Part shown: positions 3,911-44,529 of the stretch, in pieces
Layout of the letters: every line of letters begins with the position of its first letter
How positions within the stretch are numbered: the first letter of the stretch is position 1
Assembly: GCA_043756865.1 (NCBI GenBank)
Contig: JAYUQG010000024.1
Location: 91,259-155,258, forward strand
Source of the DNA: a bacterium
GTDB lineage: Bacteria; Patescibacteriota; Minisyncoccia; Phycocordibacterales; UBA6899
Direction: 5' to 3'
DNA: 64,000 nt
Translations under genes and position numbers: made by a program
The notes under the pieces: model-generated
What the model saw: the letters and a program-made list of their open reading frames with translations, nothing else
What the model was told of the DNA's origin: nothing
Databases searched by the model: none

Positions 3911-4510
3911 ATGAAATACTCAAATGCACATCACAAGGGTTTTACACTCATAGAGGCAGTGGTCTCCATTGCAATTTTAGCGTTTGCGGTCGGAGGTCCC
4001 ATGGCACTTTCCGCACAAAGTTTGCGTGCGTCGCGTGAGGCGCGTATCCAGCTGGAAGCTATACACATTGCAGAAGAGGGAATTGAGATTATTCATAACA
4101 TTCGTGACAATAATTCCGCAAAAGACGTTACGCTCACCCGCGATGCATGGATGTCATCCATACTGGGAACATGCGTAGGCGGTTGTATCGCGGATGTTAC
4201 TGACCACTCCGCTGGTGTATGGGGTCCAGCAGCACTTACTGCATGCCCCGCTGGTGACTGCAGTGTTGTAGGGCGCATTTACTATCATCCAACGTCATCA
4301 TTGTATCGACAACGCCAAATCGCGCTTGCGGCGCCGTGGGTGCCAACGGTGTTTACCCGCTCAATGACCGTTGCGGGCGTTGATGACGTGTCGAATCCTG
4401 TGCGACAGGTCGTGGTTACCTCAACGGTGACGTATCAGGGATATAATGGAGCCATCCGTACAATAAGCGTACGTCAGGATCTTTACAATTGGTTTCCTCG
4501 GCTCAACTGA
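3911..4510 (+). CDS. Prepilin-type pseudopilin (PilV-like)
   Basis: HKGFTLIEAVVSIAILAFAV prepilin N-terminus. 3-nt spacing from the previous gene. Confidence 0.75.
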   Translation: MKYSNAHHKGFTLIEAVVSIAILAFAVGGPMALSAQSLRASREARIQLEAIHIAEEGIEIIHNIRDNNSAKDVTLTRDAWMSSILGTCVGGCIADVTDHSAGVWGPAALTACPAGDCSVVGRIYYHPTSSLYRQRQIALAAPWVPTVFTRSMTVAGVDDVSNPVRQVVVTSTVTYQGYNGAIRTISVRQDLYNWFPRLN

Positions 4511-11272: not shown

Positions 11273-11552
11273 ATATAAACATGCGTGCTCCAGTCACACC
11301 AATGAGCACAGTGGATTTATAGCATATTCTGTCTCAAAATCAAACTTGGATGTCATTTGCATGCGGTTAGGAATTAATCACCAGTCCTAAGTTCACAGAC
11401 AGGACTCGGTCACGAGTTACTAAGTCTTTTGGTGCGAAGGCCACCAAAAGCCCAAGTACTCCCGACCCCGACTCGCCCGTCTCACAAGGCTTCGACATGG
11501 CTCCGTCTTTCGATTCCTGATGAAAGTGCCATTGGGCGCTTTTTTGTAATTG

Positions 11553-13741: not shown

Positions 13742-14227
13742 ATGATGAATACGTACACCGTGCGCACCGCAACAAAAAAAGATATAGACGCGCTTATTCC
13801 ACTGCAAAAAGAGATGGCAAAATATCACCACGCGCTCGATTCCATCTGGAATAAGGGAGCAAAGGATGATTCTGTTTGGCGTGAAATGCTTCTTGGGTTT
13901 TTTAAAAGAGGAAAAAATTTTTCCTTTCTCGTGCTTGAGTGTAATGGAAAAATAGTTGGTTATGCGAACGCAGAAATAAAGGTCGCGAGTCCCGCATATG
14001 CAGTCAAGTTGCTCGGGCATATAGGTAGTGTGTATGTGCAAAAACCCTATCGTCGCTCAGGTCTTGCAAGTATGGCAGTTGACCACTCCATGGACTGGTT
14101 TAAGAAAAATAAGGTGACATGGGTTACGCTTCAGGTTGATACAGACAATCCTTTGGGCACTAAAACGTGGAAGAAACTTGGATTTGAGGAGTGGCGCTTG
14201 GTGTTACGCAAGAAGCTACGTACATAG
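13742..14227 (+). CDS. GNAT-family N-acetyltransferase
   Basis: …IVGYANAEIKV…GSVYVQKPYRRSGLASMAV… is the acetyl-CoA binding region (Q/RxxGxG/A-like). Confidence 0.8.
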   Translation: MMNTYTVRTATKKDIDALIPLQKEMAKYHHALDSIWNKGAKDDSVWREMLLGFFKRGKNFSFLVLECNGKIVGYANAEIKVASPAYAVKLLGHIGSVYVQKPYRRSGLASMAVDHSMDWFKKNKVTWVTLQVDTDNPLGTKTWKKLGFEEWRLVLRKKLRT

Positions 14228-15432: not shown

Positions 15433-18027
15433 ATGGGCTGGTTCAAAAATGGGGCGGGTGACGAAGCTGAGCGCAGAAAAAGTGAACGGCGCGCAGCAGC
15501 GTTAGCACAGAACGCAAAGCGCTCCCGTGTCTGGCGTTTCTTTGCTGTCGGACTCCCTGCACTGGCTTGGACACTCTTGTGGCTTGTTGGCCTTCCGCTC
15601 GCATGCTTCGGCATGATTGGATTGTGGTACTTCGCCGACAGTCTGCTCGACACCAATACGCTTGAAAGCGTTGCGATCGTCTTCTCCACCGTTGTGTCCG
15701 AATTCATCTATGCAGTGGATATGCGCACGGGTTGGTTCTCGTATGAGATGCCAAAGGTATTCACGCTCGGAGTCAAAGAGTACATACTCACCATTCCGTT
15801 TGTTTTTTACCTGAAAGTTGCGAGTGCGGCACTCGTTGCGCTTACTGCGTTCTTTGTGGCGATTCGCTACAAAAAGGCGCGCTGGGCAGCATCGCTTATT
15901 GCGCTCATCCTGTTCACCGGAATTTCCGTCGGGTACTACACCGTTTTGGATCCCGTGGCCGCACCTCCTGCCTACGGAACACAGCTGCGCGACTTTCGCA
16001 TGCGTGAAGCTACTCATGTCACCGACGCGACAGGCACAAACGAGATTGGCTGTTTTGCGCATGAAAATCGCAACATCGTCGACCTTGCGCAGGTGAGTCC
16101 GCATCTCCTTCAAGCCATTCTTGCGTCCGAAGACCACAAGTTTTACGACCATGCGGGAGTGAACCTGTACGCGATTGTGCGTGCGGCGTTTGCAAACGCC
16201 ATGAAAGCAAAGATTGCTTCAGGCGCTTCGACGATTCCGATGCAACTGACGAAAAACGTGTTTTTGACTCCGGAAAAGTCGCTTATCCGCAAGGCGCGGG
16301 AGGCGGTCATCGCCATACATCTGGAGCATTCGGTTTCAAAAGACGAACTCCTGTATTTGTACATCAACCTTGTGTACTTCGGTGGCGCATATGGCGTCGA
16401 GGCGGCGAGTCAATCGTACTTCGGCAAGTCGGCAAAAAATGTGACCATTGCGGAAGCGGCATTTCTCGCAGCGCTCATCAACCAACCTGAAGCATATCGC
16501 CGTGGCGGCACTGCTGGGCGAAAAGCAATCATGGTGCGCCAAGTGCGCGTTGTGGACTTGATGGTCAAACGCGGAATGATTTCGGCAAGAGATGGCGACC
16601 TCGCAAAACAGCAAACGCTCGCGCCGCAAGAGTACAAGGGTACCTGCACACGTACTGAGGCGTACATTAACGCTGCGGTGAATCGTGAATTCGGCATTGA
16701 CCGCAAGATACCGATTGCAAGCGCCGGACTCAATATTCAAACGACTATTGACCTCGCGAAGCAGTCGGTGCTCGACAAGGCATGCAGAAAGGCCATTGAA
16801 GACTATCTGAAGCGTCGTCCGGAAAATGCGGAAACGATACGCTGCTCGTCGCTTGCGATAAAGACGCAGACGGGTGAAGTTGTCGCCATGGTGAGCGGTC
16901 AGAACTTTAAGATCGATCAGTATGACCACGTGGAGATGTCTGAACGCCAAGCGGGTTCGGTGTTCAAGCCCTTCGTGTATGCGGCACTCTTGGAAAAAAT
17001 CGAACTCGACGAGCTGGCGCTTCGCGAAGAACGCTGCTCCTCCATCACGGAAGACGAATGCACCGCACTCATGTCCATTCCAATTGACCTGAACTCGCTC
17101 TGCAAGGTCCTCGACGCTCCTGTTTGGGTGCCTCAAGTCGTGGGGTGGAAAGGTCGCATCGTCTCACGGCATGTGATCAACAACTACCCCTATGAGGCGC
17201 GCCCACAGCATCGTGGATGGATTTCCTGCACGCTTGCGCTCGGAGAAAGTCGCAATACTGCAACCATCTGGGGTGAAGGTCAGCTGGCTCCCGCAAGTTG
17301 GGGAGAACTGGAGCGCTGGGTTTACGGGGCGAAGACTGTGGTTAGCATGGCGCACCGCTTGGGTGTGAAGAGTCCGCTCGAACACAAGAGCGTAACCGGC
17401 AAGACCGCAGAAGAGCGTGCACAATCGCTCCCCAACTACACCATCGGCATCGGTTCCGCTGAGGTGACATTGTGGGAAATGGCAGAAGCATTCTTGCCGC
17501 TTATGAATGGAGGATGCAAACAAAGCATCTCATTCATCAAGAAAGCGACGAACGCTGAAGGCAAGGTCATCTACGAACACCTGCTCGCACCTTCGTGCAA
17601 GCGCGTGCTCTCACCGCGAGTGGCGGCCGCAATGCGCGACTTGATGACCGCATCGATTGATGTGCGCGGACAGCGTGGCTCGAATGCTCCCGGGGACGTA
17701 CTCCTCGGCACGGCTGCAAGCTTGCGCAAGTCTTTCCCGGAGGGCGTGCTCTACGGGAAGACAGGTACCGCTACGGGCCCAGATGGAACCTCATCGACCG
17801 AGAACTGGTTCATCGGTGCGAGCGCCGATTACCTTGTGGCGACAAGGCTGAATAACGTCAACAAGACGCCCCTCGGCAAGAAAGAGACCGGCGGCAGGAA
17901 CGCGCTTCCTGTATTTGATATCTTCAACAGGGAATTGAAACTCTTCGACCCGCTCGCCGTTTCTCCTCCCATCGACACCAGTGCGTCGTGGGCCCCTCCG
18001 GCACCACGGCCGATGGCAACCCGTTGA
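15433..18027 (+). CDS. Class A penicillin-binding protein (bifunctional GT51 transglycosylase / transpeptidase, PBP1A family)
   Basis: GT51 motifs (EDHKFYDH…, …TIPMQLTKN…). Transpeptidase SxxK (SVFK) and KTGT (YGKTGTATG). N-terminal TM anchor. Confidence 0.95.
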   Translation: MGWFKNGAGDEAERRKSERRAAALAQNAKRSRVWRFFAVGLPALAWTLLWLVGLPLACFGMIGLWYFADSLLDTNTLESVAIVFSTVVSEFIYAVDMRTGWFSYEMPKVFTLGVKEYILTIPFVFYLKVASAALVALTAFFVAIRYKKARWAASLIALILFTGISVGYYTVLDPVAAPPAYGTQLRDFRMREATHVTDATGTNEIGCFAHENRNIVDLAQVSPHLLQAILASEDHKFYDHAGVNLYAIVRAAFANAMKAKIASGASTIPMQLTKNVFLTPEKSLIRKAREAVIAIHLEHSVSKDELLYLYINLVYFGGAYGVEAASQSYFGKSAKNVTIAEAAFLAALINQPEAYRRGGTAGRKAIMVRQVRVVDLMVKRGMISARDGDLAKQQTLAPQEYKGTCTRTEAYINAAVNREFGIDRKIPIASAGLNIQTTIDLAKQSVLDKACRKAIEDYLKRRPENAETIRCSSLAIKTQTGEVVAMVSGQNFKIDQYDHVEMSERQAGSVFKPFVYAALLEKIELDELALREERCSSITEDECTALMSIPIDLNSLCKVLDAPVWVPQVVGWKGRIVSRHVINNYPYEARPQHRGWISCTLALGESRNTATIWGEGQLAPASWGELERWVYGAKTVVSMAHRLGVKSPLEHKSVTGKTAEERAQSLPNYTIGIGSAEVTLWEMAEAFLPLMNGGCKQSISFIKKATNAEGKVIYEHLLAPSCKRVLSPRVAAAMRDLMTASIDVRGQRGSNAPGDVLLGTAASLRKSFPEGVLYGKTGTATGPDGTSSTENWFIGASADYLVATRLNNVNKTPLGKKETGGRNALPVFDIFNRELKLFDPLAVSPPIDTSASWAPPAPRPMATR

Positions 18028-30150: not shown

Positions 30151-32034
30151 ATGACACAAGACACCGCACTTACAATTATGAAAACCGGGGCAAATATTTT
30201 CCTCACTGGTGAGCCGGGGTCTGGAAAAACACATACCGTGAACGCATATGTGCGGTACCTGAAGGAGCATGGTATTCAACCTTCCATCACTGCGTCGACG
30301 GGGATTGCCGCAACACATGTCGGAGGTATGACGATTCACTCATGGAGCGGTATTGGGATACGTCGCGCACTCTCCGAATATGACCTTGATGCAATGGCCT
30401 CGAACGAGGGGCTGGTCCGCCGACTCGCGAAAGCCAAAGTGCTTATCATCGACGAAATCTCGATGCTTGATGGCACGGTGCTCGACATGGTCGACCAAGT
30501 CTCGCGCACGATAAGGATGAAACAAGAACCCTTTGGCGGGCTACAGGTGATTTTGGTGGGTGACTTCTTTCAGCTCCCGCCGATTGCAAAGCAAGGCGAA
30601 CGTGCGCAGTTTGCGTTTGATTCAAAGGCGTGGAAACTCGCCAATCCAATTATTTGCTATCTTTCTGAACAGCATCGCCAAGAAGACACGGCGTTTCTCT
30701 CGACCTTGGGTGCGATACGTCGCGGGGAATTGGAGGACAGTGTCTTTGAGTATATTGGTGAGCGTAACGTGGCACCGGGTGAACACCCACTCGATATTCC
30801 CCAACTGTACACACACAATATCGACGTCGACAAAAAGAACACCATAGAACTAGAAAAGCTCACCAGCGCACCTGTGGTCTTTCTGATGGAAACAAAGGGG
30901 AGTACGGGGCGGGTAGAACAGTTGGTAAAAGGATGCCTCTCGCCAGAGGAATTGGTCTTGAAGGAAGGTGCGTCTGTCATGTTTACCAAGAACAGCTTTG
31001 ATTCAGGTTATGTAAATGGCACACTCGGTACGGTCATCGGGTTTGATGCTGACAACGGATTTCCTATCGTGGAAACACGTGATGGCGATGAGATAACGGC
31101 GTTTCCGTCGGAGTGGGCAGTGGACGATAGTGGCAAGGTCCTCGCGACCATCACGCAAGTGCCACTACGACTCGCATGGGCTATCACGGTGCACAAAAGC
31201 CAAGGACTCTCGCTGGACGCGGCGGTCATGGACCTCTCACGTGCGTTTGAGTACGGTCAGGGGTATGTCGCACTCTCACGTGTTCGTGAATTCGCTGGTC
31301 TGCATATTCTTGGTATCAACCAGCGCGCGTTTGAGGTACATCCACTCGTCCTTGAACGCGATCAAGCATTCCGCGAACGCTCCGACGATGCAGAGCGTGG
31401 TTTTGAAGACATGCCACCGTCTGATCTCCTGGCACTCCACAATAATTTTATTACTGCTATGGGGGGAACGATTCATGCCGTCGCGCTTGATGAAGCGACA
31501 AAAGCCCCGAAGATTTCTACATATGAACAAACACTCGCACTGGTCGCAGACGGAAAAACTCTTGCAGAGATTATCGCACTTCGCGGGATGACCGAGGGTA
31601 CAATTGTGAAACATCTCGAAGAGCTCGCGCTTTCGGGCAATCTTCCGCCCCTCGAGATGGCACAATTCACAGGACTCGAGCAGCGTGGGCTCGACGATAT
31701 ACGGGAAGCCATCCTCGGCGTAGAAGGAGGTTACTTAAAGCCTATTTATGAAGCGCTCGATGAAGCCTATTCTTATGAAATGATTCGACTTGTGCGCTTA
31801 GCCACAGGCGCTCTGGCAAAGCGTAAAGAAGAGAGCACAGAGCAAAAAGTCGCTCGTAAAGAACCAGCCACTGCGAAGCCAGACAATCTTGGTGCCAAAT
31901 GGTCAACGGAAGAGGAGTCACGTCTGAGAGAAATGTTTCAATCGGGAATGAAGACTGCGCACATCGCCCGCGAGCTCAAGCGTCAATCGGGAGGTATCCG
32001 TGCGCGACTCAAGAAGCTCGGGTTGCTTGAATAG
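30151..32034 (+). CDS. Pif1/RecD-like superfamily-1 ATP-dependent DNA helicase
   Basis: Walker A GEPGSGKTH. Walker B LIIDEISML. Helicase motif …VGDFFQLPPI…. Pif1-family architecture with a C-terminal helical extension. Confidence 0.85.
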   Translation: MTQDTALTIMKTGANIFLTGEPGSGKTHTVNAYVRYLKEHGIQPSITASTGIAATHVGGMTIHSWSGIGIRRALSEYDLDAMASNEGLVRRLAKAKVLIIDEISMLDGTVLDMVDQVSRTIRMKQEPFGGLQVILVGDFFQLPPIAKQGERAQFAFDSKAWKLANPIICYLSEQHRQEDTAFLSTLGAIRRGELEDSVFEYIGERNVAPGEHPLDIPQLYTHNIDVDKKNTIELEKLTSAPVVFLMETKGSTGRVEQLVKGCLSPEELVLKEGASVMFTKNSFDSGYVNGTLGTVIGFDADNGFPIVETRDGDEITAFPSEWAVDDSGKVLATITQVPLRLAWAITVHKSQGLSLDAAVMDLSRAFEYGQGYVALSRVREFAGLHILGINQRAFEVHPLVLERDQAFRERSDDAERGFEDMPPSDLLALHNNFITAMGGTIHAVALDEATKAPKISTYEQTLALVADGKTLAEIIALRGMTEGTIVKHLEELALSGNLPPLEMAQFTGLEQRGLDDIREAILGVEGGYLKPIYEALDEAYSYEMIRLVRLATGALAKRKEESTEQKVARKEPATAKPDNLGAKWSTEEESRLREMFQSGMKTAHIARELKRQSGGIRARLKKLGLLE

Positions 32035-32041
32035 CTATCCC

Positions 32042-32150
32042 GAGTTATGCACACCCACCCCTTGCGTAATTCTACACAGGGTGTATATTTCATTCATCGA
32101 GACGATACGTCGTCTCAATTTAACAAAGCCTGTCACCCGACGGGCTTTTT
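32042..32150 (+). repeat. Repeat R1 (copy A): ~109-nt element with three hairpins ending in an intrinsic terminator; small-RNA-like
   Basis: Near-identical to 33721..33828. Hairpins ACACCC…GGGTGT, GAGACGA-tacg-TCGTCTC, and GCCTGTC-accc-GACGGGC plus T6. Confidence 0.55.
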
Positions 32151-32177
32151 TACGCCTCGATAAAGTATTAAGTATTT

Positions 32178-32225
32178 CAGCGCGAAGCGCAGAGATAGTG
32201 AGTCCTCGAGCGACAACGCCAAATA
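32178..32225 (+). repeat. Repeat R2 (copy A), ~48 nt; pairs with 33667..33714
   Basis: agcgcgaagcGCAGAGATAGTGAGTCCTCGAGCGACAACGCCAAATAG versus agcgcgaagcACCCGGATAGTGAGTCCGCGAGCGGTAACGTCAAATAG (~80%). Confidence 0.5.
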
Positions 32226-32226
32226 G

Positions 32227-32266
32227 AAAGAAAAAACCGCCTTTTAGAGGCGGTCTGGTTTTTTAA
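32227..32266. terminator. Intrinsic terminator hairpin ACCGCC-ttttaga-GGCGGT with an A-run upstream and a T-run downstream; terminates sbmA on the minus strand
   Basis: 6-bp stem. AAAGAAAAAA on plus becomes a U-tract on minus. ctggtttttt also follows on the plus strand. Confidence 0.6.
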
Positions 32267-33591
32267 GCTACTTCGTCGATTTTCTCAAGCGGGCGATCAT
32301 TGATTGCACGTTCAAGTGAACTCAAACGTTTGTAGATTGAGAGCATTTCGACAATAGTCGGCCAATTGAGGACCAAATATTGAAAAGAACTTTCTACTCT
32401 TCCGAATGCGCGCACAATCTGCTGCATGACTCCAAGGGTGAATCCTGCAAGTATCGCCTCTTTGGAAAGCAGGGTTGGTGCGAGTGCGATGTAGGGAACG
32501 AGTGCACCCGCCTGTAGATAGCTATACCGCACCATGTTGAAGTACATGTAGTGAAAGTACATCCGAAAGTAGTTTGTTCTCACGTGACCAAACAGCTCAC
32601 GCAATGTCTTCGGTTGTGCCCGAGTTTCGTCCTCTTCGCCGAATACTAGCTCCTTGCGGTAAGCGTGCTCCACTCGTTGGTTGTGGAATTTCAATGTCGG
32701 CAGATAATAACCCGTCAGTGCGAGCACAATCGTACCGAAAACAGACCAGCAGACTGCAATAATCACCAATCCATGGGCGATCGGTCCGATGACGGGTATC
32801 TCCGAGACAAACTTCGTCGAGAGCATCCAAAGAATCGGCAAGAACGCAATGAGCGTCATCACCGCATCAAGCAGTCCCGCACCCAATCCTTCCATGATGT
32901 CTGCAAAACGCATCGTGTCGTCTTGAATACGTTGGGACGCTCCTTCGATGTGACGGACTTTGCTCCATTTCCCAGTATAGTACTCGTTCATCGCGGTGCG
33001 CCACCGGAAGTTGTAGTGCTGGATGAAATAGTTTCCCAGCGTTCTCACAATCACAAACACCGCTGCAATGGTGAAAAAGGTGGCCAGACGTCCGTAGTAC
33101 TCAGTATTTTCGATAGTTCCGGGGTTCGCAAACATGGTTTGAATCATGTTGTAAAACCCACCGAACCATTCGTTAATCATGACATCGAGTTGCACCTGAA
33201 ACCACGTGAAAAAGATAATCACAGCGGAACCAAGAAGCGACCACTTCAGCCATTTGTGTGAACTACAGAAGTACCAGCAGGCAATAAATATTCCGTAGCA
33301 AGGGATGAGGAATTGGTATGCCCAAAAAGTCACCGCGCTTCCGAGCGCACTTATCTGGGATTGCACCAACTTTACTCGCTCGGGGTCTGTCTTTGCACCG
33401 AATCGCGCCGCTTCCTTTTGTAGCGTTTCGAGTAATCCGTAGTCGAGTTGAGCAAAGCCGAACCATTGACCAACGGAATACATTTGACCTGTTTGCTCTC
33501 CTAATGTGAACCAAAACACCAAGCAGGCAAGTGCCCATATCACAAATGAGCCAAAGAAGAGGAGCGGCCTCGGAAAGAAGGAATTAAACAT
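32263..33591 (-). CDS. sbmA: SbmA/BacA-family inner-membrane peptide transporter
   Basis: Strong collinear similarity to SbmA as recalled from E. coli: MFNSFFPRP…, FRWRTAMNEYY, HIEGASQRIQDDTMRFA, MTLIAFLPIL, NQRVEHAYRKELVFGEEDETRA, YFRMYFHYMYFN, LSIYKRLSSLE. Confidence 0.85.
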   Translation of the reverse strand: MFNSFFPRPLLFFGSFVIWALACLVFWFTLGEQTGQMYSVGQWFGFAQLDYGLLETLQKEAARFGAKTDPERVKLVQSQISALGSAVTFWAYQFLIPCYGIFIACWYFCSSHKWLKWSLLGSAVIIFFTWFQVQLDVMINEWFGGFYNMIQTMFANPGTIENTEYYGRLATFFTIAAVFVIVRTLGNYFIQHYNFRWRTAMNEYYTGKWSKVRHIEGASQRIQDDTMRFADIMEGLGAGLLDAVMTLIAFLPILWMLSTKFVSEIPVIGPIAHGLVIIAVCWSVFGTIVLALTGYYLPTLKFHNQRVEHAYRKELVFGEEDETRAQPKTLRELFGHVRTNYFRMYFHYMYFNMVRYSYLQAGALVPYIALAPTLLSKEAILAGFTLGVMQQIVRAFGRVESSFQYLVLNWPTIVEMLSIYKRLSSLERAINDRPLEKIDEVA

Positions 33592-33666
33592 TGGGGGACC
33601 CCTTTTGTGTCGAGAACTTTGTCTGTCAAAAGTCTAAAGGAAGGCGCAAATATAGCAACTGCATTA

Positions 33667-33714
33667 AGCGCGAAGCACCCGGATAGTGAGTCCGCGAGCG
33701 GTAACGTCAAATAG
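33667..33714 (+). repeat. Repeat R2' (copy B)
   Basis: See 32178..32225. Confidence 0.5.
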
Positions 33715-33720
33715 CCCCCA

Positions 33721-33828
33721 AGTTATCCACACCCACCCCTTGCGTAATTCTACACAGGGTGTATATTTCATTCATCGAGACGATACGTCGTCTCAATTTA
33801 ACAAAGCCCGTCTCTGACGGGCTTTTTT
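33721..33828 (+). repeat. Repeat R1' (copy B): small-RNA-like element with terminator GCCCGTC-tctg-ACGGGC plus T6
   Basis: About 95% identical to 32042..32130. Same orientation as copy A. Confidence 0.55.
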
Positions 33829-33858
33829 ACGTCTCCACAACCGCCACAGCTTTTTCAA

Positions 33859-33888
33859 GAAAAAAACCGCCAACTGTTGATGGCGGTT
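33859..33888 (-). terminator. Intrinsic terminator for the minus-strand gene 33902..34621 (AACCGCC-aactgttgat-GGCGGTT)
   Basis: 7-bp stem. The A-run on plus becomes a U-tract on minus. Confidence 0.55.
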
Positions 33889-33901
33889 TATTGTGTTTCT
33901 G

Positions 33902-34621
33902 CTATTTACGCAGTTTGCGAATGAGCGGTTTCACGAGTATGAGGGTGATGTTGAGTGCAATCAGGCAAAGCCACAATCCAAATAGGTATTTCATGGCTGT
34001 GAAAAACCAGTCATGTTCAGTCCAGATTTCTTTGAGCGTGAACACGAAGTAGTCTGGGTCATGCCACGCGAATGCGACGATTGCTGCCACAAAAAGTGAG
34101 GTGAGGATGATTTGCCCTCGTGGTTCCTCCACAAGCCACGCGCCGATGCGCTCGAGACGATTCGTGATTTTGCTCCACCCCTCCGCCGTTCGTACGGCGA
34201 TGGGTGTCCAGAATGCACGGAGTGCTTCGTGAATTGGATCCCATGCCATATGCCAAATCTTGGTGACCCAACTTGCGGTAGCATTCCACATGCGGGCAAG
34301 TCTGTCGCCGAGTCTCAGCACGCTCACGATGGCCACTATGGTGAGGGCGACCTGACCCAAGATTGCAAAGGGAAGTCCCACAATAAGGAGCGGAATACCC
34401 CACCATGCACCTGCAGAAATTCGTTCAACAAATGCACTGCCGAGCAGTAGCGCAAAAGAGAGAATCGCCACTCCCCATGCAGGTAAGAGTGGCATTTCAT
34501 GGCGGAGCCAAAATTTGAGCCCCACAAACAGGTGGAAGTAATAAGCAATTCCTGATTTCTCGGGAACTGATTCATGCCTTGCGAGGTACGGACGCTCAAA
34601 GAAAAACCGTGCAATGTTCAT
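33902..34621 (-). CDS. Hypothetical polytopic membrane protein (239 aa)
   Basis: Five or six TM helices. Terminator downstream. Confidence 0.5.
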   Translation of the reverse strand: MNIARFFFERPYLARHESVPEKSGIAYYFHLFVGLKFWLRHEMPLLPAWGVAILSFALLLGSAFVERISAGAWWGIPLLIVGLPFAILGQVALTIVAIVSVLRLGDRLARMWNATASWVTKIWHMAWDPIHEALRAFWTPIAVRTAEGWSKITNRLERIGAWLVEEPRGQIILTSLFVAAIVAFAWHDPDYFVFTLKEIWTEHDWFFTAMKYLFGLWLCLIALNITLILVKPLIRKLRK

Positions 34622-34758
34622 GTGATGAACCCCTTTTTATCTTTCTGCAAACTACAACGATAAATGGTTATTGTAAAGAGCTTGTCGTCATGTGGTGTAT
34701 TGCACTCTCCGCCCCCACCCCGTATCATTTGCACCAGCATGTACAGCGGGAAAAGGTA

Positions 34759-35055
34759 ATGGGCAAAATGGATACATGGCGTATGACCGAAACAGGCACG
34801 GTCGGAGAATGGATACAGGCACCCAATGGTGAATTTGTGGGGACTATTGTCTCCGACTGTGGCGATGTGTACATCGCAGGAAGCAAGGACTGCCCTGATC
34901 CCTACGATGGCGCGCTCATTACCAAAGGCACGCGCGTGCGCTTCGTCCCCGAGCAAAAGGGGAACAAGGTGAAAGACATGGACACGGGTGTTCCGTACTC
35001 TTGGGGCGTCGCTCGAGAAATCGCGATTGTTCCTAAAACACTCAAGCACCGTTAG
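34759..35055 (+). CDS. Small hypothetical protein (~98 aa)
   Basis: AAAAGG SD-like sequence upstream. The start could be at 34768. The minus-strand ORF overlap was rejected. Confidence 0.35.
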   Translation: MGKMDTWRMTETGTVGEWIQAPNGEFVGTIVSDCGDVYIAGSKDCPDPYDGALITKGTRVRFVPEQKGNKVKDMDTGVPYSWGVAREIAIVPKTLKHR

Positions 35056-35848: not shown

Positions 35849-35919
35849 GGGGGTAATACCTTGAAAAATAGACGCATTTGGCTATACTGCGTAGGTTAGT
35901 TGGATTGATATAACATATT

Positions 35920-35988
35920 GCGGGTTCGTCTAATGGTAGGACGTTACCCTCTGGAGGTAAATATTGGGGTTCGAGTCCCTGACCCGCA
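35920..35988 (+). tRNA. tRNA-Gln (CTG)
   Basis: Acceptor GCGGGTT/GACCCGC, Glu/Gln-type D-arm TCTAATGGTAGGA, anticodon stem TTACC/GGTAA with loop CTCTGGA, T-arm TGGGGTTCGAGTCCCTG. 69 nt. Confidence 0.7.
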
Positions 35989-35997
35989 GTTACCACA

Positions 35998-36028
35998 CAA
36001 AAACACTCTGCCAAGAGTGTTTTTGTTT
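35998..36028 (+). terminator. Hairpin AAAAACACTCT-gcca-AGAGTGTTTTT immediately 3' of tRNA-Gln; centre of a longer palindrome
   Basis: Perfect 11-bp stem. Flanked by tRNA 3' end at 35971..35995 and its inverted copy at 36030..36055. Confidence 0.5.
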
Positions 36029-36029
36029 T

Positions 36030-36055
36030 GTGGTAACTCGCGGGTCAGGGACTCG
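36030..36055 (-). repeat. Inverted copy of the tRNA-Gln 3' end (GTGGTAACTCGCGGGTCAGGGACTCG)
   Basis: Reverse complement equals CGAGTCCCTGACCCGCgAGTTACCAC, compared with the tRNA end CGAGTCCCTGACCCGCAGTTACCAC. Confidence 0.6.
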
Positions 36056-36168
36056 AAATGCGTAAGGTGGTATACAAGACGAGCGAAGCGAGTGCTTGTC
36101 ACCGAGCCGGGGTCGAGAGCACTTTGTAGTTCGGTGGCCTTGCGCCGAAATACTTAGTGACTCGTGAC

Positions 36169-36186
36169 CGAGTCCCTGACCCGCAG
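36169..36186 (+). repeat. Direct copy of the tRNA-Gln 3' end (CGAGTCCCTGACCCGCAG); att-like
   Basis: 18/18 identical to tRNA positions 35972..35989. Confidence 0.65.
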
Positions 36187-36452
36187 CAATGTCGCAACGT
36201 CACCCTTTTTGGGTGATTTTGCTATGGGTGAAAATTGTTTGTGAGGGTGATGTTTTTCTCCCCCCGCTCAATTATGCCAATATATGTGCGGTGCACCTCG
36301 GCGCGCTCTGTGAGTTTTTCTTGGGAAAGCTCGCGTTTCAAGCGTTCCTCGCGGACTCGTTTGCCGAATTTGGTTAGCAACTGTTTATTCATATCTACAT
36401 GTACAGTGTAGGAAGTTGCCTACCATGGTTCTACATACTAAAGTTAGCAAAT

Positions 36453-37043
36453 ATGGACAATAATGCGGTGATATTTATACTAGTTGTTTTTGTTGTTTTT
36501 ATTGTGATGAAGATGTTTTTTCAAAAAAAGACACACACAAACACTCATTCAAAAAGCGGACTAATCCTTTCAATCATCTCGCTTTTGTTACCATTCGCGA
36601 AGGAGTTTTTAGAAAAGAGACAGGAGGAAAAGAAGTATATTACAGAAGACGCTCGATATAGTAAAAAACAATATTTCATGACGACCGCTGAGCATCATGT
36701 TTTCGACCAGTTGTTAAAAATAGCAGGGGAGAAATATCACGTCTTTCCGCAGGTGCACTACAGTAAAATTATGTACGCCGAGGGACAGCAGAATTTCCAT
36801 AATCCGTGGTTCAACAAGATAGACCGAAAGTCCGCAGACTTTGTACTTTTTGACAAGCACGACATTTCTCCTGTTTTGGTGATTGAGCATGACGATAAGA
36901 CTCATAATCGTAAAGACCGAATTGAAAGGGACGATTTTATTGACCACACACTTGAAAAAAGTGGAATTTCAATTGTGCATGTTCGACCATTCGCGACCGA
37001 AGAGGAACTGAAGAAACTACTCCAAGTAAAAATCAGTATATAA
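36453..37043 (+). CDS. Membrane-anchored DUF2726-like protein (predicted PD-(D/E)xK / NERD-like nuclease fold)
   Basis: N-terminal TM (AVIFILVVFVVFIVM). Core …YHVFPQVHYSKI…ADFVLFDKHDISPVLVIEHDDKTHNRKDR…GISIVHV has the D…E-x-D/K pattern typical of DUF2726. Confidence 0.6.
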   Translation: MDNNAVIFILVVFVVFIVMKMFFQKKTHTNTHSKSGLILSIISLLLPFAKEFLEKRQEEKKYITEDARYSKKQYFMTTAEHHVFDQLLKIAGEKYHVFPQVHYSKIMYAEGQQNFHNPWFNKIDRKSADFVLFDKHDISPVLVIEHDDKTHNRKDRIERDDFIDHTLEKSGISIVHVRPFATEEELKKLLQVKISI

Positions 37044-37150
37044 GCTTGGATTGGCTTAAAATTGTTCCAACGTCGTCCCACACTCCCAGCAAATGGAAGC
37101 ACCCCTTGGGGGTGTTTTCATTTGCGGGAAAAAGTGCTCTGCAGCACTTT

Positions 37151-37167
37151 TGGCAGGGACTCGAAGC
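37151..37167 (-). repeat. Inverted partial copy of the tRNA-Gln 3' end (GGCAGGGACTCGAAGCC)
   Basis: Reverse complement equals GGCTTCGAGTCCCTGCC. Confidence 0.5.
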
Positions 37168-37316
37168 CGTTCTCCCCTATTTGTGAAGGATTCTTATCCT
37201 GAGTAAATGGAAAACGGGTACTGCCCCTGTAAGGGGAGAGTCTCTGACTCGGAAGACTGAGGCGAAACACTTGGCACATAAGCACTCCTGTGCGAATATG
37301 TTTAGTAACTAATGAC

Positions 37317-37331
37317 CAGTCCCTGACCCGC
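37317..37331 (+). repeat. Direct copy of the tRNA-Gln 3' end (CAGTCCCTGACCCGC); att-like
   Basis: 14/15 identical to the tRNA 3' end. Confidence 0.6.
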
Positions 37332-37364
37332 TACTAAATTGAGTGAGGTTCGGTTCGCGAGAGT

Positions 37365-37790
37365 ATGATTATGACGCCAGAAAATTTAATAAACATAATA
37401 AGTATCGGAGGGGCACTACTAGGTGTTGTTGTTGGAGCACTCCTTAATCACTTTCTAGAAAAAGATAGAAATAAAGACTCTTTAATCTTAAATAAGAAAA
37501 TTGATATTTACTCCTCCCTGTTAGTTAAATTAAATACAGTATTTCAAGACAGTGAGAAAAATATTCTTAATGACCCACTCTTTGAAACAACAATCAGAAC
37601 AACCCTTGCACAATCATTGTCAGAAGCTCGCCTAATAGCTGATGCAAAATTAGAACAGAAACTCAGGGACTACTATGATGAAGCAGTGCTTTTTTGGGAG
37701 AATAAAAAGTACGACAACACCATGCCTAATTTAGTTATTGAGATTGAGCAGTTGATGCGAATTGAGCTAGGAAAAGAACGTCTGCATTAA
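37365..37790 (+). CDS. Hypothetical protein with an N-terminal TM helix and an alpha-helical domain
   Basis: IISIGGALLGVVVGALL TM. AT-rich codon usage typical of the islet. Confidence 0.45.
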   Translation: MIMTPENLINIISIGGALLGVVVGALLNHFLEKDRNKDSLILNKKIDIYSSLLVKLNTVFQDSEKNILNDPLFETTIRTTLAQSLSEARLIADAKLEQKLRDYYDEAVLFWENKKYDNTMPNLVIEIEQLMRIELGKERLH

Positions 37791-37894
37791 TCATTTTGCT
37801 GAGCGCCGAAATGACTTCTTTCAAATCGCCTTATATATCATTATTGGCTTAATGGGGGAAAGTAGGACGCAGGGGGCTGCGGTAAAACCACGAA

Positions 37895-38614
37895 GTGAAA
37901 AGAAGTATCGATCCAATGAAAAACGAAAAAATTAACTCAAAAATCATCGCTCTGTGGAACAAGTATTTTCAGAATGACACTGAGGTGTACGCACCGATGT
38001 TCTACGATGACTTCAAGCGGGGCGGGTTATTGTTTGTCGGCATGAACCCGTCATTTAGCGAGCGAGGATTCAAGACGATCTTGAAAGGCACAAAGTATGA
38101 GAAGATTGACCCCACTTCGTTTTTCAGGTGGAGTAATATTTCCTCAAACCCTGATCTTATCAGCGACTGTATTGCGGTCGAGACCCATGCGTACGAGAAT
38201 TACAAACCCTTCTTTGCTCGTCCTGTTGCGATCGCAAAAGAAGTCGGGCTTGATTGGCAACACATTGATCTATTTCTTTATAAAGAAACATCGCAGGCAG
38301 ATTTCAAGAAACGCATTAAGGATGGTGACTTGCTGAATCAATTTGCACTCGAGCAAATCGCGCTCTTTGAGGAGGTGCTCCTTGCGATTGAGCCGAAGTG
38401 CATCATCGTTGCGAACGCATTCGGCTCCGAGCTTCTCCGTGAACACATCAAGAATGACCTCTTGTGGGATAAAGAGCGGGGATTTCACTGGTTCACCAAA
38501 GGAGGACGAAAGATTCCCATGCTCTTTTCCTCCATGCTTAGTGGGCAAAGAGCACTTGATCGGTGGTCGTATGAACGCTTGAAATGGCACGTTGGGCAGG
38601 CGGTAAAATCATGA
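37895..38614 (+). CDS. Hypothetical protein; possible uracil-DNA-glycosylase-superfamily fold (GMNPS motif). Speculative.
   Basis: LLFVGMNPSF resembles UDG-family motif A (GQDPY/GINPG/GMNPG). The C-terminal …FSSMLSG… is only a weak motif-B candidate. Confidence 0.4.
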   Translation: MKRSIDPMKNEKINSKIIALWNKYFQNDTEVYAPMFYDDFKRGGLLFVGMNPSFSERGFKTILKGTKYEKIDPTSFFRWSNISSNPDLISDCIAVETHAYENYKPFFARPVAIAKEVGLDWQHIDLFLYKETSQADFKKRIKDGDLLNQFALEQIALFEEVLLAIEPKCIIVANAFGSELLREHIKNDLLWDKERGFHWFTKGGRKIPMLFSSMLSGQRALDRWSYERLKWHVGQAVKS

Positions 38615-39321
38615 AAATTATGACAGGAATATTTTTTTCACATCCACATACACTTTCAGATCAAGTAGGTAAAATCTTGGAAAGAGTTGGTCCTCAGAAA
38701 TTCTTTTCAAGTTCTGACAAAGAAGTGAAGAAAGCACAAGAAGGATTCGCGGCATATTTCTTCACTCTTACTTTAAAGAAATACACAGGAAGAGACTGGT
38801 GGTTAGCTCAATACGATCAAGCGGCTCGGTCTTATCCAGATTTTAATTTTATATCATTCGCCGAAAATCCTGGCGATATAAAGATGGAACCAGTAGAACT
38901 AACTGGTATTTATCCTCATTTCAAAACTTTTGATGAGGCCTTAAGAGTTGTTGAAAATAAAAAGAAGAAATATGGATCTGAGCCAGTGAATTTTAGTCTG
39001 CTGGTATTTGTTAATCACGAAAAAAGCGAAGAGTGGATTAATCTGCTAAGGGAGAAAGTGAGTAGCGAGCATCCATTCCTAAGTATTTGGACTATACACT
39101 TGAGATTCAAGAAGGGTGGAAAGGAAGTTGGTAAGTCGGTCGCCCAAAGCATACCCCCCTTGCCATGGCTGAGGATTGAAGCAGATACTGATGATTCAGA
39201 AGTGCACAAGCGCCAGCCGCTCCCATCCTATATGGAAGAGCATCATGAAGGAAGGAATACTTACGTCACATTCAAACCCGAGTTTCTTGATAAGATCAGG
39301 TCGTTGCAAAAAAGTGCCTAG
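38611..39321 (+). CDS. Hypothetical protein (236 aa)
   Basis: ATGA start/stop overlap with the upstream gene. No recognisable motif. Confidence 0.5.
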   Translation: MKIMTGIFFSHPHTLSDQVGKILERVGPQKFFSSSDKEVKKAQEGFAAYFFTLTLKKYTGRDWWLAQYDQAARSYPDFNFISFAENPGDIKMEPVELTGIYPHFKTFDEALRVVENKKKKYGSEPVNFSLLVFVNHEKSEEWINLLREKVSSEHPFLSIWTIHLRFKKGGKEVGKSVAQSIPPLPWLRIEADTDDSEVHKRQPLPSYMEEHHEGRNTYVTFKPEFLDKIRSLQKSA

Positions 39322-39806
39322 TTTGTTGGTGCTGTAAGAATATCCCCGAATGGCTTCACTGTACGGTATTTGTTGTAAATGAGGCAGAGACAGAGACGGG
39401 TGTTTTGTGTCTTATCTGTAGCATTCACAAAATGACCCCAGTGACCGAGACGCCTAGTTACAAGAGTAGAAGGGGTGGTAAGATATCCGTATAAGGTCTT
39501 GCCCTACATGTTTGAGACCGAGATAGTCAGCTATCAACAATAGGTTCGGCTGACCGAGTGCTATCAGAACTGGAAATTTAAAGATTCACTCAATTCCATC
39601 CCGACATACCGGCTGAGTGCCGTATCTAGAAACTCAAAGTCGCTCAATGGGCGACTTTGAGTTTGAGTTGTAGAATAGGTCTGTAATCTATAGGATATAC
39701 AAATGTCAGTCAAACTCATTCTGAAGAGATAGTCCGCTTCTTGAAAACCACAGAGCCGGAAGCCATTTGTATTAGGGGTGAATAGGGTGTCAGATTTGCA
39801 ACTTTC

Positions 39807-43423: not shown

Positions 43424-44034
43424 ATGTCCCAACCCCCCTATCTTGCACCAACAGAAAATGGGTGTAAGTTTACTCATGCGATAAAAAAGAAATTCTCGCT
43501 TGCCTCTGGAGCACTCATGATTCTCGGTGGGTTATTCACTGCAGAGGGTTGCCATAGCGGCGGGTGGTTCGCCGTTTGACCGACTTGCGGCTGCACTCGG
43601 AGAGCTGCGGAGAGACCTCTCCAGCCTCGAAGTGTGCATTAACAACTTGGTACTTGTACCCGGTCCGCAGGGACCTCGAGGTATTCAGGGAGAGGTTGGA
43701 CCGCAGGGTTTACAGGGTGCTCCTGGTACACAGGGAGCGGTCGGTCGACTGATTACTTACCGTGTGACCTTACCATTCGCCGACATCGCGCTTAATTCTT
43801 CGGCTGCTGCAATCGCAAGGTGCGAACGCGGTGACCAGATACTCTGGTGGGTACTTCCTTCAGGGCTCGACTACTCAGATAGTGGACACAAGGCCTGACT
43901 ATATGGATTGGAACGGAACAAGTTTCGTCGAAGGATGGAAAGTCGTAGGTAGCAATACGAATCCTCCGGCAGGAATTCCCTCAAGCATCGGACTCATTGC
44001 CGCATACGCGCTGTGTAATGACGCCACGCCGTAG
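43424..44034 (+). pseudogene. Collagen-like (Gly-X-Y)9 repeat protein gene split into three frames by two +1 shifts at G-runs
   Basis: Frame 2 (43424..): signal-like MSQPP…KKKFSLASGALMILGGLFTAEGC. Frame 0 (43527..43898): GPQGPRGIQGEVGPQGLQGAPGTQGAVG. Frame 1 (43831..44034): C-terminal domain. Shifts sit at ggcggg (~43550) and tggtggg (~43845). Confidence 0.5.
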
Positions 44035-44178
44035 TCTTGCTCGTTTATCAAAAAAACCGCTACTTGGCGTTGCCGCTCGAAGACTCACTTTTTTTGCGCG
44101 CTTTGCGCGGTAGATACAAAAAGCCATCACGTGGTTTTTTGGTAACACGGTCTCTATGTATTTTGCTAGAATACATTA

Positions 44179-44529
44179 ATGGAAAAACACCGTATCTACA
44201 CAATGAGCTTTGCTAGTGTTTATCCATTGTATGTCGCCAAGGCAGAGAAAAAGGGGCGTACGAAAAAAGAGGTGGATGAGGTCATCCGTTGGCTGACGAG
44301 GTACAGCCAGAAAGAATTGGGCACGCAACTGAAAAAACAAACAGACTTCGAGACGTTTTTTGGTGAGGCACCCGAAATGAATCCTGCGCGAGCATTAATT
44401 ACCGGTGTTATTTGTGGTGTGCGATTAGAAGATATTGAGGAAGCGCTTATGCGCGAAATCCGTTATCTGGATAAACTTATCGACGAGCTGGCTAAGGGGC
44501 GTACGATGGAGAGGATTTTGCGAAAGTAA
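44179..44529 (+). CDS. DUF2200-family protein
   Basis: [32 protein letters not shown] is the conserved DUF2200 N-terminus. Confidence 0.65.

Follow-up and report, generated by a model that had tools for sequence, protein, structure and literature searches.

A gene of the SbmA peptide-transporter family within nested direct repeats of a Candidatus Lloydbacteria chromosome, and a candidate small RNA gene in one of the repeats

A stretch of 64,000 nucleotides (nt) of a metagenome-assembled bacterial contig (JAYUQG010000024.1, positions 91,259 to 155,258; the whole stretch is called the window) contains a gene of the SbmA/BacA family, which is enclosed by two pairs of short repeats. The order is R1-R2-[sbmA]-R2'-R1', and the four copies (R1a, R2a, R2b, and R1b along the plus strand) are all in direct orientation. 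Sequence comparison with related genomes indicates that sbmA, with its own predicted promoter and terminator, is a resident gene, ancestral at this site and vertically inherited. As a whole, our reading is that the spacers around this resident gene gained two unrelated short elements, and that one of them, R1, is a module of the plus strand; we judge this combined reading to stand at about an even chance. A preliminary description, made from the sequence alone, had regarded the gene as an acquired cassette.

The sbmA gene and its inheritance

The sbmA coding sequence (32263..33591, minus strand) encodes a protein of 442 residues. The Pfam search identified PF05992 (SbmA_BacA; E = 3.5e-131, 437.8 bits) and PF06472 (ABC_membrane_2) as the only matches; a nucleotide-binding domain is absent. 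The NCBIfam SbmA equivalog NF008306 matched residues 1-440 with 521.4 bits, above its cutoff of 492. The Escherichia coli SbmA structure 7P34 was matched with E = 1.6e-117; this structure, 9G3D, and 9RQJ (E about 1e-117) cover residues 89-437 and the N-terminal helix of the window protein. The motifs FRWRTAMNEYY and YFRLYFHYMYFN also align to the solved structure 7P34. The assignment to SbmA, which the preliminary description had made from E. coli motifs, is thus borne out by the Pfam family, the NCBIfam model, and the structure. The product is a full-length SbmA, a member of the family by every sequence test, and is predicted to be a peptide importer of the SbmA/BacA (SLiPT) type without an ATPase domain.

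Like E. coli SbmA and Sinorhizobium meliloti BacA, the window protein is full length and has an ABC-type transmembrane domain but no ATPase domain. A fused ABC ATPase is found in BclA; its absence separates SbmA/BacA from BclA. The proteobacterial SbmA proteins share about 55-62% identity with the window protein, which differs from E. coli SbmA (7P34) by an extra ~35-55 residues after the first helix (query 32-88 vs 32-59).

The gene has its own putative signals. The predicted promoter (33631..33658, minus strand) consists of a -35 element TTGCTA (33658-33653), a 16-nt spacer, and a -10 element TAGACT (33636-33631); transcription might start near 33624. When the upstream sequences from five lineages are aligned, TTGC.A and TAGA.T do not vary, and 16 nt always separate them (TTGCYA-N16-TAGAST). 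The intrinsic terminator (32234..32256, minus strand) is a bidirectional hairpin (ACCGCC/GGCGGT, -10.7 kcal/mol), and an equivalent hairpin is present in the relatives. Four relatives conserve about 9 nt (…TAYTTGAAAG…) that are missing from the sbmA leader of the window (33592-33625, minus strand); the Shine-Dalgarno region within this leader is AAGGGGUCCCCC, not GAGGUG.

The CTP synthase (pyrG) of the window shares 88% identity with that of a Candidatus Lloydbacteria metagenome-assembled genome and 86% with that of a Parcubacteria genome. On this basis, the genome belongs to Candidatus Lloydbacteria (Parcubacteria, in the candidate phyla radiation, CPR), and the organism is an uncultured groundwater bacterium. 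Besides pyrG, the core chromosomal genes in the window include the NAD-dependent ligase (ligA), a GatA-like amidase, and a class A penicillin-binding protein.

A PIF1-family helicase gene (30151..32034, plus strand; Pfam PF05970, HTH_40) is the conserved neighbour of sbmA, and the two genes are convergent. The PIF1 orthologues also adjoin sbmA in relatives. The groundwater contigs L005-L012 have the order p271-PIF1-> <-sbmA with pyrG upstream, and share 40% (p271), 61% (PIF1), and 74% (SbmA) identity with the window; the same order is found in L052, with 60%, 77%, and 80% identity, respectively. Nucleotide homology with the relatives corresponds to sbmA with its own promoter and terminator, from about 32231 to 33660; the blastn homology with L009 reaches 32231, at the sbmA terminator. 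Neither R1 nor R2 is present in either spacer at any of the relatives' loci examined. The GC content of sbmA (0.484) is that of the window (0.4835). Synteny in the relatives, the orthologous promoter and terminator, and the window-like GC content all argue that sbmA is ancestral at this site. Since the relatives lack R1 and R2, the repeats would have been added around a resident gene, rather than the gene between resident repeats.

These comparisons do not support the view that the cassette looks acquired: the gene order is kept in four relative lineages without R1 or R2 (PIF1 61-77%, SbmA 74-80% identity). It had been proposed that relatives might lack sbmA between single copies of R1 and R2; the relatives keep sbmA and carry neither repeat. 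In the search for such empty sites, sbmA was present and convergent with PIF1 in L005-L012 and L052, and only L057, a Lloydbacteria contig described below, differed by holding a paralogue.

A cassette could nevertheless be imagined that leaves and returns. In this explanation, a circle of the form R1-R2-terminator-sbmA-promoter-R2 would have integrated beside PIF1 through one crossover with an R1 already resident there, and could exit via R1xR1 or R2xR2 recombination. The repeats are direct and nested, and R2 lies within 5 nt of the sbmA unit on both sides; differences between the R1 copies are confined to the ends, the pattern that chimeras from a crossover in the identical core would show. 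The segment upstream of sbmA (33592-35051), which holds R2b, R1b, a gene for a 239-residue membrane protein, and a small plus-strand open reading frame (ORF), has no counterpart in the relatives. The membrane-protein gene (33902-34621) is lineage-specific, with one homologue in 5.8 billion proteins. In L057, the repeats around a BT1-family transporter gene include the PIF1 3' end, the kind of trace that a duplication or a single-crossover integration typically leaves; the different SbmA_BacA paralogue held there (40% identity, other strand) also indicates that the interval turns over. However, sbmA has the ancestral placement and direction with respect to PIF1, which the repeat-free loci L005, L009, and L052 also show; the promoter and the terminator are orthologous, the composition is not deviant, and no near-identical sbmA was found elsewhere (best match 82%). 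No recombinase, transposase, or integrase family was found among the six flanking ORFs scanned, the repeats are not inverted, and no duplicated flank is present. The plasmid and phage sequences gave no match to R1 or R2. An origin from plasmids or phages was rejected, as only the conserved sbmA core matched, to proteobacterial sbmA/bacA at 64-66% nucleotide identity. Together with the unequal ages of R1 and R2 (see below), these observations make the cassette explanation improbable.

What is unusual about sbmA is its CPR host alone. In a 2025 survey of one species from each of 1,255 genera, SbmA/BacA was found solely in Pseudomonadota (PMC12003926); the text of this survey mentions no CPR group, and our literature search found no paper linking SbmA with CPR. 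About 14 protein clusters, 62-82% identical to the window protein, form its clade of relatives, and a gap separates them from the proteobacterial SbmA. This clade (loci L002-L013 and L050-L052) is fixed in Lloydbacteria/Parcubacteria chromosomes, which suggests an old transfer of the gene into CPR. The clade may also suggest a role of peptide uptake in these reduced, partner-dependent cells.

R1, a two-copy repeat and a proposed plus-strand module

R1a (32039..32163, plus strand) begins 4 nt past the PIF1 stop codon; R1b (33717..33840, plus strand) lies between R2b and the terminator of the 239-residue membrane-protein gene (33864..33889, minus strand, from the terminator scan), which forms the outer edge of its spacer. 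The two copies share 97% identity over 96 nt (32039-32134 vs 33717-33812). After a one-base indel in a loop, they continue with 88% identity over 25 nt (32139-32163 vs 33816-33840). The core at 32050-32130 is an 81-nt run without any difference. R1 is the longest repeat in the 64-kb window, where a 35-nt R1 probe had 2 matches vs 0.00 expected by chance. The nested direct repeats of the preliminary description therefore hold, with 97% identity over 96 nt for R1 and 82% for R2, beyond chance in both cases.

On the plus strand, R1 begins with about 20 nt of C-rich sequence. A -35-like element TTGCGT (32062-32067 in R1a, 33740-33745 in R1b) and a -10-like element TATATT (32084-32089 and 33762-33767) follow, separated by a 16-nt spacer. 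About 7 nt farther on there is a hairpin, GAGACGA-UACG-UCGUCUC (32099-32116 and 33777-33794; -8.4 kcal/mol), which is joined by a short, A/U-rich linker, AAUUUAACAAA, to a terminator stem-loop (32128-32145 and 33806-33822). The terminator has a 7-bp GC-rich stem (-10.7 to -11.6 kcal/mol) and then T6 (32146-32151 and 33823-33828). Compared with shuffled controls, the plus-strand fold gave z = -6.1 for R1a and -5.3 for R1b. The hairpins and the plus-strand intrinsic terminator, already noticed in the preliminary description, are thus upheld by the fold scores and the stem energies. The consensus terminator scanner did not list the R1 terminator; it probably draws the stem into pairing of the A-tract with the T-tract, which leaves too few free T residues.

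The arrangement TTGCGT-N16-TATATT resembles the promoter-like sequences upstream of the tRNA genes of this genome (TTGCGA-17-TATAAT, TTGTAA-17-TATATT, and TTGAAA-16-TATACT). The R1a terminator is the only one between the PIF1 stop codon and the sbmA terminator. R1b has no plus-strand gene upstream, so its terminator would serve nothing but R1b itself.

The differences between the copies are not scattered evenly. All seven of them are located upstream of the -35 element, in the terminator loop, at a wobble position of the stem, or past the T-tract; the -35 element, spacer, -10 element, hairpin, linker, stem pairing, and T-tract are spared. Under uniform scatter, the 81-nt run without difference has p = 0.003. 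The stem change in R1a gives a U.G pair on the plus strand (-10.7 kcal/mol) vs A.C on the minus strand (-6.7 kcal/mol), and the hairpin loop UACG is of the UNCG class only when read on the plus strand. Purifying selection on a promoter-hairpin-terminator unit could produce such a distribution, and so could gene conversion.

R1 could thus plausibly encode an RNA of about 55 nt, and is a candidate small RNA (sRNA) gene in two copies. The sRNA suggested in the preliminary description fits this anatomy; it is weakened, not refuted, by the absence of copies elsewhere, in searches that covered 64 kb of this genome. In terminator-sharing sRNAs, the RNA has its own promoter inside or just after a gene and uses the terminator of that gene. 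R1a is similar to such 3'UTR-embedded (untranslated region) genes in having a promoter-like element, a hairpin, an A/U-rich linker, and the only terminator of PIF1. R1 is different in that it has no conserved homologues or Rfam family, and R1b follows no plus-strand gene. Should the RNA exist, it would join the very few regulatory RNA candidates described in CPR bacteria.

Other roles of R1 were considered and rejected. R1 does not appear to be part of a longer coding gene, a concern raised earlier: the overlapping ORFs have no Pfam family, and the ATG in R1a is ATC in R1b. Small proteins encoded by R1 or R2 were rejected, with no Pfam family, no ribosome-binding site, and start codons not kept between copies. 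A type I toxin-antitoxin system was rejected by inspection, as the short ORFs on either strand are not hydrophobic. Pairing of the R1 RNA with the translation-initiation region of sbmA was also rejected; by a crude duplex method, sbmA ranked 67th among 74 genes with the ~55-nt transcript and 51st with the whole R1.

A simpler explanation is a neutral duplicated spacer. R1 would then be the 3' flank of PIF1 with its terminator, copied once and kept alike by gene conversion; R2 would be a junk repeat, and termination would be the only function. There are just two R1 copies, 1.7 kb apart, with none elsewhere in the scans; R1a has an evident job as the PIF1 terminator, and the -35 element is weak. 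No pairing between R1 and a target stands out, with sbmA ranking low, and the identical core can be explained by gene conversion. However, CPR genomes are compact, and it would be unusual to keep 125 + 51 nt of spare DNA twice. The differences avoid every predicted functional part, and the changes in the terminator keep pairing on the plus strand only. The R2 core, moreover, is 83-89% conserved between two genomes at non-homologous sites, which points to constraint or recent mobility. The neutral spacer is unlikely in our estimate.

The repeats are also found in the sequencing reads. In SRR23617209, three Logan unitigs are 100% identical to the window. L055 ends at 32079 and L001 spans 32101-33757, and both end exactly 30 nt past copy-specific bases (k-1). 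Since these unitigs break k-1 from the R1a/R1b differences, both R1 copies with their own flanks are present in the reads. The contig is metagenome-assembled, and repeats are common sites of misassembly, so that a false duplication by the assembler might be suspected. However, three independent unitigs support the window at 100%, L055 and L001 end 30 nt past copy-specific single-nucleotide polymorphisms, and each R1 variant is joined to its own unique flank; the copies differ at 7 positions in R1 and at 9 in R2, which neither a collapsed pile of reads nor a duplicated one would produce. An assembly artefact is hardly credible. The unitig L054 stops at 33801 instead of the expected 33779, 22 nt off the k=31 break point; this could reflect a third R1-like sequence with an R1b-type terminator or a strain variant in the sample.

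R2, a dispersed repeat family, and a proposed origin of the bracket

R2a (32176..32226, plus strand) ends 5 nt before the homology with the relatives begins. R2b (33664..33714, plus strand) lies 5 nt upstream of the sbmA -35 element and is oriented against sbmA; 2 nt separate it from R1b, which follows. The two copies share 82% identity over 51 nt. A third copy, R2c (44058..44110, minus strand; nhmmer E = 2e-17), had been missed by the preliminary description; it lies in the spacer that separates a collagen-like ORF, ending at 44034, from a DUF2200 gene, which starts at 44179. A search of the window for the R2 core pattern gave 3 matches vs 0.02 expected. The DUF2200 gene itself seems leaderless, as TGCTAGAAT ends 6 nt before the ATG at 44179.

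The 30-nt core of R2 is AGTGAGTCCTCGAGCGACAACGCCAAATAG, which is invariant at 24 positions in four copies. R2 contains two mini-hairpins of 3-5 bp. The first (GCGC-GAA-GCGC) shows one compensatory change, GTGC/GCAC in L014; the second is GCG-RYAA-CGY. The strand-specific wobble pairs point opposite ways for the two mini-hairpins.

The fourth copy is outside the window. The scan of a species-representative genome collection found one true locus, L014 (positions 4030-4127 of the Lloydbacteria contig MHLM01000014). There, trmD ends in the R2 core, which supplies its last 15 codons and its stop codon; two more 26-nt sub-repeats follow, and then a TTGACA-N17-TACTTT promoter. R2 is the only sequence common to L014 and the window, and its core is 83-89% conserved between these two genomes at non-homologous sites. 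A relaxed metagenome scan gave 35 loci for R2, of which 33 were chance matches in GC-rich coding DNA and 2 were the same Lloydbacteria locus; a viral-contig scan found nothing. It was also observed that each R2 unit in L014 ends with ATAG, which places TAG in all three frames just before the promoter of the next gene.

R2 is similar to repetitive extragenic palindromes, bacterial interspersed mosaic elements, and miniature inverted-repeat transposable elements. It is ~50 nt long, has small hairpins, occurs in both orientations, and lies in spacers next to terminators or promoters; it is likewise found at non-homologous sites in two genomes (3 window copies and MHLM01000014). It differs in having very few copies (3 in 64 kb, and a single locus in the species-representative collection), and in that it is not an overall palindrome and has no terminal inverted repeats or target duplications. 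No RAYT or transposase accompanying R2 was seen within the data from the 64-kb window. A coding fragment of PIF1 or trmD was rejected, since the window has no trmD and R2, by inspection, has no similarity to the PIF1 3' end. Inspection also spoke against an integron attC site, a sigma-54 promoter, and a dif-like site, whose core motifs or spacing R2 does not match.

R2, and perhaps the 5' half of R1, might instead be regulatory DNA, that is, a protein-binding site or a portable promoter for sbmA, DUF2200, and other genes. R2b ends 5 nt upstream of the sbmA -35 element, R2c lies upstream of the DUF2200 gene, and the three tandem R2 sub-units in L014 end 2 nt before the TTGACA-N17-TACTTT promoter. 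The invariance of the 30-nt core would agree with a binding site, and the other strand of the core spans a TTGRCG-N16-CACTWT arrangement. However, R2 is not oriented consistently to the downstream gene: it runs against sbmA and DUF2200 but with the L014 gene. R2a has no promoter nearby and is placed between two terminators that converge, and R2c is 50-120 nt from a candidate promoter; R2 has no dyad symmetry, and no candidate regulator was identified. A regulatory role is thus rather improbable.

R1 and R2 have different histories. The R1 copies contain 3 mismatches in 96 nt vs 9 in 51 for R2 (Fisher p = 0.004). The order of R1 and R2 is swapped on the two sides of sbmA, and copies of R2 occur at unrelated sites. 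R1 and R2 are accordingly taken as separate elements; as they differ in age, one integration, as in the cassette explanation, cannot explain both pairs.

Our reading of the bracket around resident sbmA is therefore one of separate events. Each spacer flanking the sbmA unit would have gained one copy of R1 and one of R2 in this lineage. R2 (~50 nt) would belong to a small, older family of dispersed intergenic repeats; R1 (~125 nt) would be a module in two copies, younger or under constraint, that acts on the plus strand. Its sigma-70-like promoter (TTGCGT-N16-TATATT), UACG hairpin, A/U-rich linker, and Rho-independent terminator may produce the ~55-nt RNA, and the R1a copy may also terminate PIF1 transcription. 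Separate duplications into neighbouring spacers, rather than the insertion of a cassette, would have left the nested bracket as a by-product. With the help of RecA, the 81-nt identical R1 cores, or the R2 copies, could recombine with each other and so delete or amplify sbmA, a possible route to loss or gain of the gene.

Several observations weigh against this reading. The closest sbmA genes (80-82% identical) sit in several different contexts, so this gene has changed place as the clade evolved. On both sides, R2 comes within 5 nt of the conserved sbmA unit, which gives a cassette-like look. The -35 element of R1 agrees with the consensus at 3/6 positions, below the scanner threshold of 4/6, and the promoter scanner reports nothing in R1. 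R1 matches no Rfam family at the gathering thresholds (whole window) or at E <= 10 (31900-34000); these scans gave tRNAs (whole window, gathering thresholds) and terminator-driven sub-threshold hits only. No R1 homologue was found in two viral-contig scans and one metagenome scan with 22-26-nt probes, whose need for exact matches would let copies with more than about 5-10% divergence escape, and nhmmer --max found nothing in all the fetched relatives' loci. The repeat searches within the genome itself covered the 64-kb window, and the other scans were near-exact, so the absence of R1 elsewhere is weak evidence. Because no homologue was found, R1 has no covariation support. Gene conversion between copies 1.7 kb apart could also give the identical R1 core.

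The PIF1-TfoX interval in a relative, and other features of the window

The contig L057 (Lloydbacteria MHLM01000004) shares 88% (pyrG) and 72% (PIF1) identity with the window. Its interval between PIF1 and TfoX contains a BT1-family transporter gene and a short SbmA_BacA paralogue (329 residues, 40% identity, plus strand), which is on the opposite strand to the window sbmA. The BT1 gene is bracketed by ~115-nt direct repeats (13802-13916 and 15638-15752, 90-100% identity), which consist of the last ~55 nt of PIF1 and the downstream leader. The likeness to the window lies in direct repeats of ~115-125 nt, 1.7-1.8 kb apart, around one transporter gene just downstream of PIF1. The repeats themselves are different: a partial PIF1 3' end with leader in L057 vs non-coding modules in the window. 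R1 was rejected as a homologue of the repeated leader, as the Smith-Waterman scores were no better than shuffled (p = 0.09-0.66).

Since the BT1 gene in L057 is also repeat-flanked at the same locus, repeat-bracketed transporter genes arise repeatedly just downstream of PIF1 in this group. No variant junctions were observed for the L057 bracket or the window bracket. As the relatives differ in their transporter genes in the PIF1-TfoX interval, and two of these genes are repeat-bracketed, the interval may serve as a small, tractable example of gene turnover in CPR.

A bolder explanation would unite these features: R1 as a new pair of sRNA genes and R2 as a recombination or regulatory site would make sbmA an insulated, excisable or amplifiable module, of which the BT1 bracket in L057 would be a second instance. 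We consider this highly improbable. If it were true, a CPR bacterium that depends on a host could alternate between taking up peptides, as nutrients or signals, and keeping peptide antibiotics out. The current understanding is unchanged unless expression or recombination is demonstrated.

The window PIF1 has a C-terminal extension of ~68 residues (31830-32034, plus strand) with a Myb/SANT-like look. It is absent from the 559-residue orthologues in L005-L012 and present in L057 (631 residues).

Another element of ~130 nt occurs at 36044-36180 (plus strand) and 11395-11525 (minus strand), each time 50-180 nt past a tRNA gene, which is a different one for each copy. Overall identity between the copies is 75%, with 34 nt at 88%, and their folds gave z = -7.1 and -2.6. 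They share a long stem-loop with a compensatory change and have no Rfam match; at the end of each there is a duplicate of the neighbouring tRNA's 3' end, which resembles an att site. The 3' end of the tRNA gene at 35919-35989 is copied both inverted (36038-36058) and direct (about 36168-36188). Beyond these copies, and within 35919-39500, there is a low-GC stretch (0.37-0.44) with an XRE-type HTH gene and a DUF2726 gene, which is probably an integrated element or a remnant of one. The collagen-like (Gly-X-Y) gene at 43527-44034 (plus strand) appears to be broken into two overlapping ORFs (43527-43898 and 43831-44034) and is probably frameshifted or a pseudogene.

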